Shown piece by piece: positions 3,836 to 45,372 of a DNA stretch of 64,000 nt. Source of the stretch: Eledone cirrhosa (Eukaryota); assembly GCA_964016885.1 (NCBI GenBank), contig OZ024742.1:61318001-61382000 (forward strand). Direction: 5' to 3'. The notes below the pieces were generated by a model. It saw only the letters and a program-made list of their open reading frames with translations, did not search any database and was not told where the DNA came from. Positions within the stretch are counted from its first letter, which is position 1. The number at the start of each line of letters is the position of its first letter. Both the position numbers and the translations under genes were made by a program.

Positions 3836-4734
3836 GTTATGACGTGATTATAAAGCATTTAGTTGTTTTCTTTTTCTACACAAACAAATCAATAACAGCA
3901 TTACGTTGAATTGATTTTATCTATAGGCACCAAAGGTTCTAGTACTTTTCGATCATGTGGTTGCCGATAGTTATCACACAGGGTGAGATTATTACAATTC
4001 AGAATGTAATGATATGAGATATCAATATTTAAAATCTTCATGAACAATAAGAGTATCAGTAAAGGTTTGAGTGATATCATGTTATTCGTAACATAACTAA
4101 TATTAAAATCGAAATATTTGTGTTTCTTTTATAATACTTCAATTTGATTTTCACATTTTATATTGAACATATTTAACAAGAATGTTCTTCTGTGTCGAAG
4201 GTCACACGCGTACTCTTAACGCAATTCTATAGAAGATTAAGCGTTAAATTCTTTAAATTAGAGTTACAGTCCATTTTGCATTAGAATGTATGCTCTTGAG
4301 TATTTCATATGCATATATGAATTACAAGGAACGGCCTGCCTCAAATATCATGTGGAAAAGCTAACCCTTTTGAATTACAGGTACAGTCTACCTTATATTG
4401 TAGTGTGATTGGGTACCTTAGAAACGGGTACTTTTCACGTAATTCTCTTTAAAATTCATCGTAAGACTCTATGTAACACGGCTGATCCTTTTGAATTATA
4501 TGAAGAGTCAATCCGACAGAGTTTTAAGGTTTCTCTTCCCACTTTCAGTTCAAATCTTCTAGAGGGGAACCCTTATCATCTCTCAGCCACTAGCCGCCTT
4601 ATGAAGCCGGGATAAACTCTGGTCTGATGAAAGTCTAGGCTCGAGTCAGACTTTAAATAGCTTGAGTTTTCCCAAAGGTTAGCCTAATTGCTACGTGCTA
4701 ACCCTGCGGTAAACAACAGCAACAGCAATTAACA

Positions 4735-8649: not shown

Positions 8650-8872
8650 CATTTCTAGCCTGATAGTTGGGTTTATAATTTGCTTGTTTATCATTCACTT
8701 GCTAAGTTCATAGCTTCTAATTCGAATGGAAGGAGATGGGATGTGTATTGGTGTAATGGTAGCACAGTGGTCTGGATAACCAAAGATGTGGGTTCGACTC
8801 CCATGTACGGCAACACTCATCTTTTTTCATTTCTCCGAGGGTTATAAACCCCACTATCAGGCTAGAAATTTC
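8650..8872 (+). mobile_element. tRNA-like (SINE head) sequence bracketed by ~28 bp inverted repeats
   Basis: A-box-like tggtgtaatggtagc and B-box ggttcgactccc at 8749-8803. atttctagcctgatagttgggtttataa (8651) is inverted at ~8842-8869. Confidence 0.55.
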
Positions 8873-10039: not shown

Positions 10040-10570
10040 AGGCTGTGTGTTTACTGAAAACGAAGTGTAAGAACGTAATAGGGACGTAAACAAAAGAAGC
10101 AAGGTAGTCCTTAGTCAGCTGTTTACTACGGATCATAGATGTTTCGGCGCTTAAAACAGGACATCGATCCGTAGCGCGCCCATGGCCTTTTATCAATTAA
10201 AAGGCCACGAGGGAAAGAAGTGACAGTGAAGAGGGAGGAAGAAAGGAAAAAAGGGAAATAGGAAAAAACGAAGTAAACATACCGAATAGGACACAGGACA
10301 ATGGCACATGTATGTAAGTAACCGAGGAGGGAATAGAATAAGTTTTACTGTACTGCTGGGAATAGGCGCGGTGGCCGTATAACCTCGTAGCAAGGTTTTT
10401 CCGTGGGGATCTCAGTAAAGTGAGTGTAGAGAGAGAGAGAAAGACGGAGAAACAGGAAGTGAGAGAGGGTGAGTAAGAGGGATAGAGAGAGAAGAAGGAG
10501 AAGGGAAAGGGATTTAATCCAAAAGGGGTTTACAACACGTGTGTGACCAGGGCGAAAACAAGCATATGGA
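10040..10570 (-). mobile_element. Penelope-like 3' remnant carrying a permuted hammerhead-like motif
   Basis: GIY-YIG-like tail (..VNPFGLN..) at ~10510-10560, pyrimidine-rich UTR, and a structured motif at 10107-10214. Confidence 0.55.
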
Positions 10571-18066: not shown

Positions 18067-18487
<421 letters not shown>

Positions 18488-35439: not shown

Positions 35440-35660
35440 CCTCCCCTCTCCATGACAGCAATGATGTCCAAAGGAAAGGCTATGGCCAATAGAGCTTGGC
35501 ACCAGTGGCGTCGCAACTTATTTCTACAGCTTAGTAAACCGGAACAACATCAAATAAAGTGTCTTTCTGAATGACACAACGCATCACCCAGTCCGAGACT
35601 CGAACTCAAAACCTTTCGATTGCAAGCCCAATACTCTACCCATTAAGCCATATACCTTCA
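35440..35660 (-). mobile_element. tRNA-derived SINE (second family)
   Basis: Minus: ggcttaatgggtagag..gagttcgagtctcgga..gttgtgtc..ttgttccggtttact. A related head lies at ~56290-56385. Confidence 0.65.
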
Positions 35661-42159: not shown

Positions 42160-42241
42160 GATAAACAGAAATAACAACACAATCGGTACAGTATATGGTA
42201 AGAATCTATTAGGTTAATGCTTGAAATAGCAGGAAGAGGGC

Positions 42242-42275
42242 CTTAACGTTTCGGACGCTAGTCCTTCATCAGAAG
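42242..42275 (-). ncRNA. Minimal type I hammerhead
   Basis: ctt-CTGATGA-a-ggac-tagc-gtcc-GAAA-cg-TT-aag. Degenerate relative at ~6205-6238. Confidence 0.7.
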
Positions 42276-42746: not shown

Positions 42747-42802
<56 letters not shown>

Positions 42803-42805
<3 letters not shown>

Positions 42806-43993
42806 CTGTCCTAATAACTTAATTTAGTTATTATTGCACCGACGTGAGGTATATGATTTTTAATGCAATGAAATATCTATGATCGTCGGCAAATCACTTA
42901 TGAGGGACTCATTTTATTACTTGTTATCCATGTGCAACCTGCAGTATTCTTCTCCCCATTTTTTTAAATATATTTACCTTAACTGCGATTCTGTTTTTTT
43001 CTCTCTCTCTCTCTTACTGCTCCCTCGTTCTCTCTGTTTCTCCTACTTTCTTTCGCCCCCTCTGTCATGTCAGTTAACTCTTCCTCACACTTCCACTCAC
43101 TCACTCACTGTTTCTCCCCTTCTCACTTCACCCCATTCGCGACGAAAACATTTTCTCTCTTTCTCACATTTGGATTCATCCCGAAAGGTCTTTTTTCTAA
43201 GCGCTCATATATTCACCTAGCTTATGCTAACAGAATAACTATGTAGCTTGTTCCCTTCCTCTCTACGGTTAGCTCTCCTCTTTGTTGTTATTTTGTCTCA
43301 CTCGCTTTACGCGTTTTAATTGTCCTAATAACTTAATTTAGTTATTATTGCACCGACGTGAGGTATATGATTTTTAATGCAATGAAATATCTATGATCGT
43401 CGGCAAATCACTGATGAGGGACTCATTTTTTATTACTTGTTATCCATGTGCAACCTGCAGTATTCTTCTCCCCATTTTTTCACATATATTTACCTAAACT
43501 GCGATTCTGTTTTTTCTCTCTCTCTTACTGCTCCCTCGTTCTCTCTGTTTCTCCTACTTTCTTTCGCCCCCTCTGTCATGTCATTTAACTCTTCCTCACA
43601 CTTCCACTCACTCACTCACTGTTTCTCCCCTTCTCACTTCACCCCGTTCGCGACGAAAACATTTTCTCTCTTTCTCACATTTGGATTCATCCCGAAAGGT
43701 CTTTTTTCTAAGCGCTCATATATTCACCTAGCTTATGCTAACAGAATAACTATGTAGCTTGTTCCCTTCCTCTCTACGGTTAGCTCTCCTCTTTGTTGTT
43801 ATTTTGTCTCACTCGCTTTACGCGTTTTAATTGTCCTAATAACTTAATTTAGTTATTATTGCACCGACGTGAGGTATATGATTTTTAATGCAATGAAATA
43901 TCTATGATCGTCGGCAAATCACTGATGAGGGACTCATTTTTTATTACTTGTTATCCATGTGCAACCTGCAGTATTCTTCTCCCCATTTTTTCA
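42803..43993 (+). repeat. Tandem array, ~512 bp x 2.3 units, each with a permuted hammerhead-like motif
   Basis: Units start at ~42803, 43317 and 43828. Pyrimidine-rich body like PLE 3' UTRs. Confidence 0.9.
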
Positions 43994-44015
43994 TATATAT
44001 ATATATATATATATA

Positions 44016-45372
44016 CAGGATGTTTCAAAATATTTGATATCATTTCGCAATCTAATAACTTTGCCAGTTCCCGTTGAAATGACTTCAAAGTTTAACAGCA
44101 TGTGTAGAAACGGATCAAGATTTTAGGTTTAATATTTGATATTTTTATCCTTTTAGGTATAGAAATGGCATTCACTCGAAGAGAAAAGGCGTTTTGTGTG
44201 TTGGAGTATGCTCGAACACAGTCGAACATGTCTGTGCAGCGTGCATTTGTGAGAGACTTTTCTAAAAAGTCACCAACGGCAATGCAGATTTGGACATGGC
44301 ACAAAAATTTCAAACAGGAAGGCTGTATGAACAGAGCAAAAGGATCTGGACGGCCACTAACATCGGAAGAGATGGTCGAGCGGGTTCGCCAAAAACGCTT
44401 GCGAAGCCCCAAGAAGTCCATAAGAAAACAAGTCTGGAAACCCAGATTCCTCCAACGACAGTTTGTCACATCCTGAAGAAATGCTTGCTACTGAAACCCT
44501 ACAAGCTGCAGCTCTTTCAGGCCATAATGGTAGATGACAAGCGAAAGCGCAAACAATTCTGTGTTGATATGCAAGAGAAACTTGAAGAAGACGAGTTCAA
44601 GGAACGCCTTGTTTTCAGTGATGAGGCCACATTTCATACGAATGGCAAAGTCAATAAGCATAATGTTCGCATTTGGGGCGAAGAAAGTCCCCTTGCCACA
44701 GTTGAGCATGAGAGGGACTCACCAAAACTGAATGTGTTCTACGCCATCTCCAATAAGCATCTTCATGGTCCGTTTTTCTTTGGGGGAAATGTGACCGGCG
44801 ATGTTTATCTGCAAATGCTTCAGAACAGCCTAATGGATGAGCTCATTGCAAATGAACATGAAGACTTCATTTTTCAACAGGACGGGGCTCCACCTAACTG
44901 GAAGCTCACTGTGCGGGCTTATCTCAATGACAATCTGCGAGGGAAATGGATCGGGCGTGCTGGTGATGAAGAAAATGTGCTGTTGAAATGGCCATCACGT
45001 TCACCTGACCTGACACCTTGCGATTTTTTTCTGTGGGGCTATGTGAAGGGCCTGGTCTATGTCCACACTCTTCCTGCAAACCAAGAGGAACTCAAGCAGC
45101 GAATCACTAACGCACTGCAGACTGTTACCCAAGACATGCTGCAGCGTGTTTGGGAGGAGCTGGACTACCGACTTGACTTGTGCCCTGTCTCATGCGATCC
45201 ACATATTAAATATTTATGAAATTATTCATGGAATAGACATACCTTTGAATTTCTCATTCAAATTTGGAGGAATAAATCTTATGTTGCTCAACATTAAGCC
45301 TGTTTAGTTTCATTTGCTTTGACTCTGTGATATTTACATCTCAAATGATATCAAATTTTTGGAAATACCCTG
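44016..45372 (+). mobile_element. Tc1/mariner DNA transposon, rosa/Visitor (DD41D)-like, frameshifted transposase
   Basis: Imperfect TIRs caggatgtttcaaaatatttgatatcattt / aaatgatatcaaatttttggaaataccctg, TA flanks. N-terminal HTH from 44165, FSDEATF, FQQDGAP, WPSRSPDLTPCDFFLWG. Frameshift near 44430. Confidence 0.95.

Follow-up and report, generated by a model that had tools for sequence, protein, structure and literature searches.

A rewired hammerhead motif conserved in a high-copy, non-coding tandem repeat of Eledone cirrhosa, with a likely origin in Naiad Penelope-like elements

The window analyzed here is a stretch of 64,000 nucleotides from Eledone cirrhosa (assembly GCA_964016885.1, contig OZ024742.1, positions 61,318,001–61,382,000, forward strand). 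On its plus strand, between (TA)n tracts, lies an insertion of 2.35 tandem units (42802–43995; 514 bp, 511 bp, and ~170 bp) belonging to a repeat family designated F1. The unit is non-coding, is dispersed at high copy number in the genome, and carries one copy of a hammerhead-like RNA motif. The motif copies in the insertion begin at 42808, 43322, and 43833, and their 101 nt are identical apart from a G5-to-U change in the first (position 42899). That first copy (42808–42908, +) is predicted to be inactive, and the third (43833–43933, +) equals the second letter for letter; both recurrences, including the mutated core, had been reported by a first-pass annotation and were verified. In our reading, which we consider probable, the motif is a rewired but conserved hammerhead carried by a non-coding tandem repeat of high copy number; it likely cuts itself after A43367 and likely stems from the 3′ terminal repeat of Naiads, an animal clade of Penelope-like elements (PLEs).

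All 14 segments that the first-pass annotation had claimed at 43322–43422 are in place when read from the sequence, and they pair as claimed. The plus-strand motif starts with the 5′ strand of a junction helix, a (43322–43326), whose partner is 43418–43422, and continues with a junction hairpin, h, of 7–8 bp (43326–43347), a displaced stem II strand (43347–43352), which pairs with 43378–43383, and the 5′ strand of a helix p (43353–43358), equivalent to the 'I' helix of type-SGC ribozymes. Block S (43362–43373) then provides a stem III strand, U16.1 (43366), A17 (43367, with the predicted cut 3′ of it), and a stem I strand, and block G (43378–43392) provides a stem II strand, GAAA (43384–43387), and the other stem III strand. 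A 6-nt linker with a conserved GA (43392–43397), which was first noticed in families F1–F3 and afterwards put into the search patterns, leads to the 3′ strand of helix p (43398–43403). Block C (43405–43422) completes the motif with a stem I strand, CUGAUGA (43411–43417), and the 3′ strand of helix a.

All the hammerhead core parts are thus there, in the block order S-G-C, which is the reversed cyclic order that had been proposed and, unlike that of types I–III as modeled in Rfam, is not a circular permutation of C-G-S. Helix p connects stems I and II at their far ends and is nested on stem III, to which it is joined on both strands. The stem II partner strand is placed 5′ of all other parts and is rejoined via a four-way junction at A9/N10.1, so the earlier idea of a junction in place of stem II stands, the GAAA-side strand pairing with the displaced 5′ strand. 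The arms of the junction are the core, helix a, hairpin h, and stem II, with 0–1 unpaired nucleotides per exchange, and the ends of the RNA open within the two-helix insertion between A9 and N10.1. The fold energy is weakly informative (z = −1.6 on the plus and −1.8 on the minus strand), and as the two scores are alike, energy does not choose the strand; the minus strand was rejected as the functional one, the core being absent there. Of the six helices, the nested minimum-energy structure contains a, h, p, and III; the other two cross and are beyond any nested fold.

The genome of 3.0 Gb is rich in TA microsatellites and also in this motif. A generic core-spacing pattern matched 24,909 times in the genome, compared with 109 for the control; all that it prescribes is GAAA, a pyrimidine, a GA, and CUGANGA, at given distances from one another. 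The 18-nt core word of F1, with up to two mismatches, gave 17,253 matches (35 for the reversed control), and patterns for F2 and F3 gave 2,832 (control 1) and 366 (control 0). After subtraction of these main families, two generic patterns yielded 3,316 (control 39) and 299 (control 56) matches, from which at least four further families emerged. All these pattern counts cover the 3′ half of the motif only, many copies being 5′-truncated. At least seven sequence-diverged families carry the motif. Identity to the window unit is 96–100% among F1 copies. A profile search of fetched loci brought up F2, F3, and the window's second family, which keep the core while their helix letters differ. The window itself contains an F3 copy on the minus strand (10104–10216), which has a diverged sequence with the same fold (z = −4.3), a GUC site, and CGAAAC, and in which core G8 is altered. 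A descriptor of helices II, p, III, and I, of the kind proposed for a genome scan in the first-pass annotation, matched 232 times in the fetched loci, representing 146 distinct copies, and never in 7.2 Mb of shuffled sequence. Furthermore, the motif is present in contigs of sequencing runs X1, X4, and X5, and one 219-nt contig comes from a second organism.

Is the fold itself kept among these copies? We aligned 50 real copies, namely one per cluster from 49 of 51 clusters plus the window copy; the other two clusters, which have microsatellite 5′ parts, were dropped. In this alignment, 87.7% of the paired cells hold a pair, compared with 74.9 ± 0.6% after shuffling and 31–45% with slid partners, and cells with double changes number 273 compared with 97 after shuffling. 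Pairing amounts to 79% in helix a, 86.5% in hairpin h, 83.5% in stem II, 93.9% in helix p, 94% in stem III, and 92.5% in stem I. At least three pairs are altered on both sides in each of the six helices, including five of the six pairs of stem I, three of the five of stem III, and six of the eight of hairpin h. It speaks against too strong a use of these numbers that the covariation counts are uncorrected for relatedness and that the copies were preselected for pairing in II, p, III, and I. On the other hand, helices a and h were absent from the descriptor by which the copies were chosen, and helix a has at least 4 bp beside the hairpin in 114 of 140 5′-complete copies, compared with 2–9 in slid controls. 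These results indicate that the fold is maintained by selection via compensatory changes, and such covariation across genomic copies, on which the earlier reading had been made to depend, extends to all six helices. In one F2 subfamily (e.g., L107, L112, L113, and L117), poly-C often takes the place of the A run behind the core, which leaves helix a with 2–3 bp; these copies may be decaying, or a short junction helix may be tolerated.

The first-pass annotation had supposed the architecture to be undescribed. This does not hold for the strand order: Eckert et al. (2023) defined the blocks S, G, and C, found types SGC and CSG in metatranscriptomes, and showed that these cleave and need all four helices, including a validated extra helix that links stems I and II (PMC10085705). 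Our motif shares with them the reversed cyclic order, the full catalytic core, a helix by which stems I and II are connected at their far ends, a link of 3–4 nt from stem I to stem II, and a site for insertions between A9 and N10.1; in SGC-1, as read from its oligonucleotides, the linkers are just as short and A9/10.1 carries one additional U (PMC10085705). An extra nucleotide between A9 and 10.1 is also known in the CChMVd and PLE hammerheads (PMC1636495, PMC4209133), and in our motif, two whole helices occupy this place. Eckert et al. assume block C to be uninterruptible (PMC10085705), whereas here it is interrupted by the two helices of the four-way junction, and because of this interruption the topology lies outside the six-order scheme. 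It also differs from types SGC and CSG in that helix p is joined to stem III on both strands and in that it resides in an animal genomic repeat rather than in metatranscriptome RNA. What is new is consequently the stem II strand moved to the 5′ side and rejoined through a four-way junction at A9/N10.1; the S-G-C order itself is known.

No existing model was found that covers the split form. An Rfam scan of the window at the gathering score gave no hammerhead or other ribozyme match, only two tRNA-like ones. The published SGC/CSG patterns demand a stem II right behind CUGAUGA(U)G as well as CGAAA (PMC10085705), a clause that fits 0 of the 146 copies, and the split-stem-II form fell outside them for this reason. 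A canonical hammerhead formed across tandem units was likewise rejected, as a direct 3-bp stem II (after the core and before GAAA) exists in only 2 of 146 copies. In the literature searched, in which subscription papers are thinly covered, we found no description of the split-stem-II topology and no tie between permuted hammerheads and Naiads; the accessible text and supplement of PMC10085705 do not contain 'octopus' or 'mollusc', nor the supplement 'junction', and its accession-only rows might hide an animal sequence. The minimal type I hammerheads of PLEs resemble the motif in lying in terminal repeats, having an extra nucleotide at 9/10.1, and being thought to act as dimers, and they differ in their C-G-S order, hairpin stem II, and palindromic stem III (PMC4209133); in the motif described here, helices cross and both stem I and stem III are full. 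The window also contains words of such minimal PLE-type hammerheads, consisting of the core, a short hairpin stem II, and GAAA, at ~42235–42272 (−), near 4624 (+), and near 18200 (−), so canonical and permuted forms coexist there.

Does the RNA cut itself? The core words CUGANGA and GAAA were demanded by the searches, but position 17 was left free, and in the 146 distinct copies it is A in 94, C in 37, U in 15, and G in none. The predicted site in the window is AUA, a natural hammerhead cleavage triplet (PMC1636495). Furthermore, we mapped the 5′ ends of 214 copies from the pattern matches, excluding six with internal deletions. F3 5′ ends step at the predicted cut, with 11/55 at-risk copies ending at 0 to +7 compared with 0/44 at −1 to −8 (p = 0.001), a suggestive sign of cleavage in these genomic copies; pooled over families, the step has p = 0.025. 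Several observations pull the other way. F2 shows no step (4/63 versus 5/59), F1 ends are too sparse (1/62 versus 0/61), and stalling of the reverse transcriptase (RT) on structure, or microhomology in (TA)n, could mimic a step. Moreover, the junction has two registers; in the second, the hairpin is closed by U43326–A43347, for which most other families have C-G, and G43418 stands opposite U43383 as N10.1/N11.1, a pair formed in 56% of copies, and in the window family the canonical G10.1–C11.1 pair is replaced by G·U or A-U. Taken together, the motif RNA likely cuts itself 3′ of A43367.

The arrays as a whole behave like PLE insertions. Their 3′ ends are fixed: among 27 distinct arrays (loci L008–L037), the last unit stops at unit position 172–186 in 23, at 155 in three, and at 100 in one, and in the window the end runs into (TA)n at 43975–43995 (+), ~120 nt past the predicted cut. 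The 5′ ends are variable, the flanks consist for the most part of (TA)n, the arrays comprise 1 to >6 units, and inverted copies are frequent. Unit lengths are 497–576 in F1, 548–578 in F2 (plus one spacing of 897), 624 in F4, and 735 in F3. The proposal of a PLE- or retrozyme-like tandem unit is thereby borne out. Because the fixed 3′ end lies beyond the predicted cut, the template of a long insertion must be an uncut multimer or a circle. Metazoan non-LTR (long terminal repeat) retrozymes are also non-coding tandem repeats of short, low-GC units, each with one hammerhead; they are dispersed in thousands of copies and have a proposed origin in the pseudo-LTRs (pLTRs) of PLEs (PMC7229834; 10.64898/2026.07.22.740005), but theirs are type I hammerheads in units of 150–450 bp, whereas the hammerhead here is non-circularly permuted in units of ~500–735 bp. 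A 5.2-kb repeat around one motif (L187/L188, G000:C1:111933000-111952999) was considered as the autonomous element and rejected as a segmental duplication; it is a triplication with one permuted motif per 5.2-kb unit and adjoins a broken PLE with a C-terminal endonuclease (EN).

Insertion in (TA)n, tandem and inverted copies, and a fixed 3′ end are found in Naiad PLEs, which prefer (TA)n targets, insert in tandem and inverted arrangement, and are described from cephalopods as remnants only (Craig et al. 2021, PMC8557442). Since Neptune-type PLEs share the (TA)n pattern, this targeting is not Naiad-specific. Naiads were reported to be without canonical hammerheads, some of their cores fitting no descriptor ('HHR_core', 'HHR_half_core'; PMC8557442). 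In the File S5 passages of that paper, we find the six-helix form at the 3′ ends of nine Naiad records: Naiad-3_Chem (Clytia), Amil, Aacu, and Anas (Acropora), and Naiad-2_Movir (Morbakka), together with Plae (Pomphorhynchus), EuTe (Eulimnadia), and Obim and Ovul (Octopus). Bfor (Beroe) has it in part, with a stem I of 2–3 bp, and the fold is thus seen in five phyla. Six nematode Naiads (Pristionchus, three Nippostrongylus, Haemonchus or Heligmosomoides, and Ascaris) have a plain CSG arrangement, so that permuted hammerheads occur in at least 16 of the 54 published records, the partial Bfor included. In the Octopus records, both linker words, of 3 nt and 6 nt, are those of the window family, and the linker GA is also present in the Octopus and acanthocephalan Naiads (PMC8557442).

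Other 3′ ends in the same file differ. Naiad-1_Movir has a twister-like word in the place of the permuted hammerhead, as judged by eye against a published twister alignment. In Naiad_Ptep (spider) and Naiad-4_Dst (ostracod), whose motifs are partly visible, we see apparent variants of the SGC order with helix p behind the core. Naiad_CGi, Sglo, Olur, Tgra, Skow-2, Chem-1, and Chem-2 share another conserved, GC-rich motif just past the open reading frame (ORF); CUGANGA is absent from its visible stretches in these bivalve, hemichordate, and two hydrozoan Naiads, and it may be another ribozyme class, known or new (PMC8557442).

The E. cirrhosa genome contains remnants resembling the published Octopus Naiads. 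The repeats have the fold that lies close to the 3′ end of many published Naiad records, and like Naiads they occur in a cephalopod, insert into (TA)n, and form tandem as well as inverted arrays; unlike them, the window element is a non-coding unit of ~0.5 kb (PMC8557442). A Naiad connection, which the first-pass annotation had not drawn, has to be set against several findings. The Naiad parses were made by eye, on passages from part of the 54 records. The genome yielded no intact Naiad, the 55 matches to a Naiad-like stretch having open frames of at most 236 amino acids; a same-strand motif downstream of such matches was seen in 0 of 20 stretches, the 3′ ends being too decayed to read; and the 3′ word of the published Octopus Naiads is not in the genome (11 two-mismatch matches, control 3). 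With these points weighed, the motif is likely the ribozyme that Naiads were reported to lack, here amplified in non-autonomous repeats, and our best reading of the window unit is a putative non-autonomous, Naiad-related retrozyme that inserts in (TA)n.

How might such a unit spread? In the scheme that we propose, tandem transcripts would be cut to unit length and could circularize, a PLE reverse transcriptase/endonuclease supplied in trans would nick (TA)n, and priming at an internal AU-rich site ~120 nt beyond the cut would be followed by copying of a multimer or circle. Internal priming has been shown for another PLE, PAc, although for PAc hammerhead cleavage is dispensable for insertion in vitro, which tells against a need for cutting (PMC11167929). 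No consistent partner ORF was seen among the open frames listed beside 186 loci.

Could the active ribozyme close within one molecule? A-form helices extend by ~2.8 Å per base pair, and a single nucleotide spans up to 6 Å. Estimated from these dimensions, the window copy needs ~38 Å and has ~35 Å available, which is marginal. In the Eulimnadia Naiad, stem III has 10 bp, helix p has 5 bp, and the links have 0–1 nt; in the Acropora Naiads, the values are 12 bp, 10 bp, and 0 nt on one strand (PMC8557442). By the same estimate these motifs need >50 Å, so with such links a single molecule cannot close unless stem III opens. Two antiparallel copies, on the other hand, would close at any stem length. 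In such a swapped dimer, the hairpin of p and III from one copy would give blocks S and G, and the stem II strand, together with the junction and block C, would come from the other copy. The same difficulty of closure was pointed out by Eckert et al. (PMC10085705), and minimal PLE hammerheads are thought to act as dimers (PMC4209133). We therefore lean toward the swapped dimer as the active form, in which case a single copy would not suffice for cutting; tandem repeats and paired pLTRs supply the second. The first-pass annotation's wording, pseudoknotted or multimer-assembled, is a fair naming of the two options.

The competing possibility, somewhat doubtful in our view but the strongest of those considered, is that each copy folds alone as a compact double pseudoknot, in which the 3-nt × 6-nt loop with its GA is a hinge that lays p along stem III. 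The families of this genome all have a helix p of 6 bp, a stem III of 5 bp, and 3/6-nt linkers, a constancy of length that a tight hinge predicts, and SGC RNAs with similarly short linkers were cleaved during transcription and treated as monomers (PMC10085705). However, the Eulimnadia, Acropora, and nematode motifs combine a long stem III with links of 0–2 nt to p (PMC8557442), and the available parts of the Eckert et al. report describe no test of concentration dependence (PMC10085705).

A second alternative leaves the ribozyme in place but changes its history: the retrozyme may share its fold with Naiads through capture or convergence and now be moved by another PLE. Only decayed Naiad remnants were found in the genome, and the 3′ word of the published Octopus Naiads is absent, whereas our endonuclease pattern picked up not Naiads but a young C-terminal-EN PLE family (L263–L292, G000) in which the RT is followed by GIY-YIG, with 1,789 pattern matches, long open frames, and ends in (TA)n. 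This family could act in trans on the unit. Part of its 3′ repeat is found in the window at 716–962. Nevertheless, the CUGANGA core was not seen in the 3′ flanks of 9 of the 10 copies of the young family that were read, and the linker words, hairpin position, and junction that the Octopus Naiad ends and the unit have in common argue for common descent. Mobilization by a different PLE today would, moreover, be compatible with a Naiad origin, and we regard this alternative as improbable.

Least probable of all is that the fold serves a retroelement protein as a binding or priming signal and has lost cleavage, or needs the help of protein for it: most families are without G10.1–C11.1, minimal PLE hammerheads cleave poorly in vitro (PMC4209133), PAc can insert in vitro without cleavage, and F2 shows no 5′-end step, but the catalytic letters and the avoidance of G at position 17 hold across diverged families and phyla, F3 ends do step at the predicted cut, and the apparent twister-like motif at the same place in one Naiad points to a need for cleavage itself.

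Other features of the window lie apart from the hammerhead. Directly past the F1 array, a DNA transposon sits in (TA)n at 44016–45372 (+), with terminal inverted repeats and a split helix-turn-helix (HTH)/DDE transposase (weak Pfam DDE_3 and DUF4817 matches). The two tRNA-like Rfam matches, at 8745–8809 (+) and 35593–35650 (−), have weak acceptor stems and are probably the heads of tRNA-derived short interspersed nuclear elements.

The preferred reading, a Naiad-derived permuted ribozyme amplified in retrozyme-like repeats, leads to a broader proposal, for which we see roughly even chances: non-circularly permuted hammerheads, including the split-stem-II topology, may be the standard ribozyme of Naiads from ctenophores to molluscs and nematodes, acting as obligate swapped dimers that sense tandem copies, and the SGC and CSG RNAs of metatranscriptomes may share this mechanism. 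If true, this would solve a stated puzzle, namely the reported spread of Naiads, an animal PLE clade, in the absence of canonical hammerheads, which had been used to argue that hammerheads are perhaps dispensable passengers of PLEs. Non-circular permutations, so far seen in rare metatranscriptome RNAs, would then be a feature of animal genomes as well, with copies in the tens of thousands that neither Rfam nor the published descriptors detect. Finally, the natural series of stem lengths could show how permuted ribozymes close in three dimensions, the question raised by the 2023 paper.
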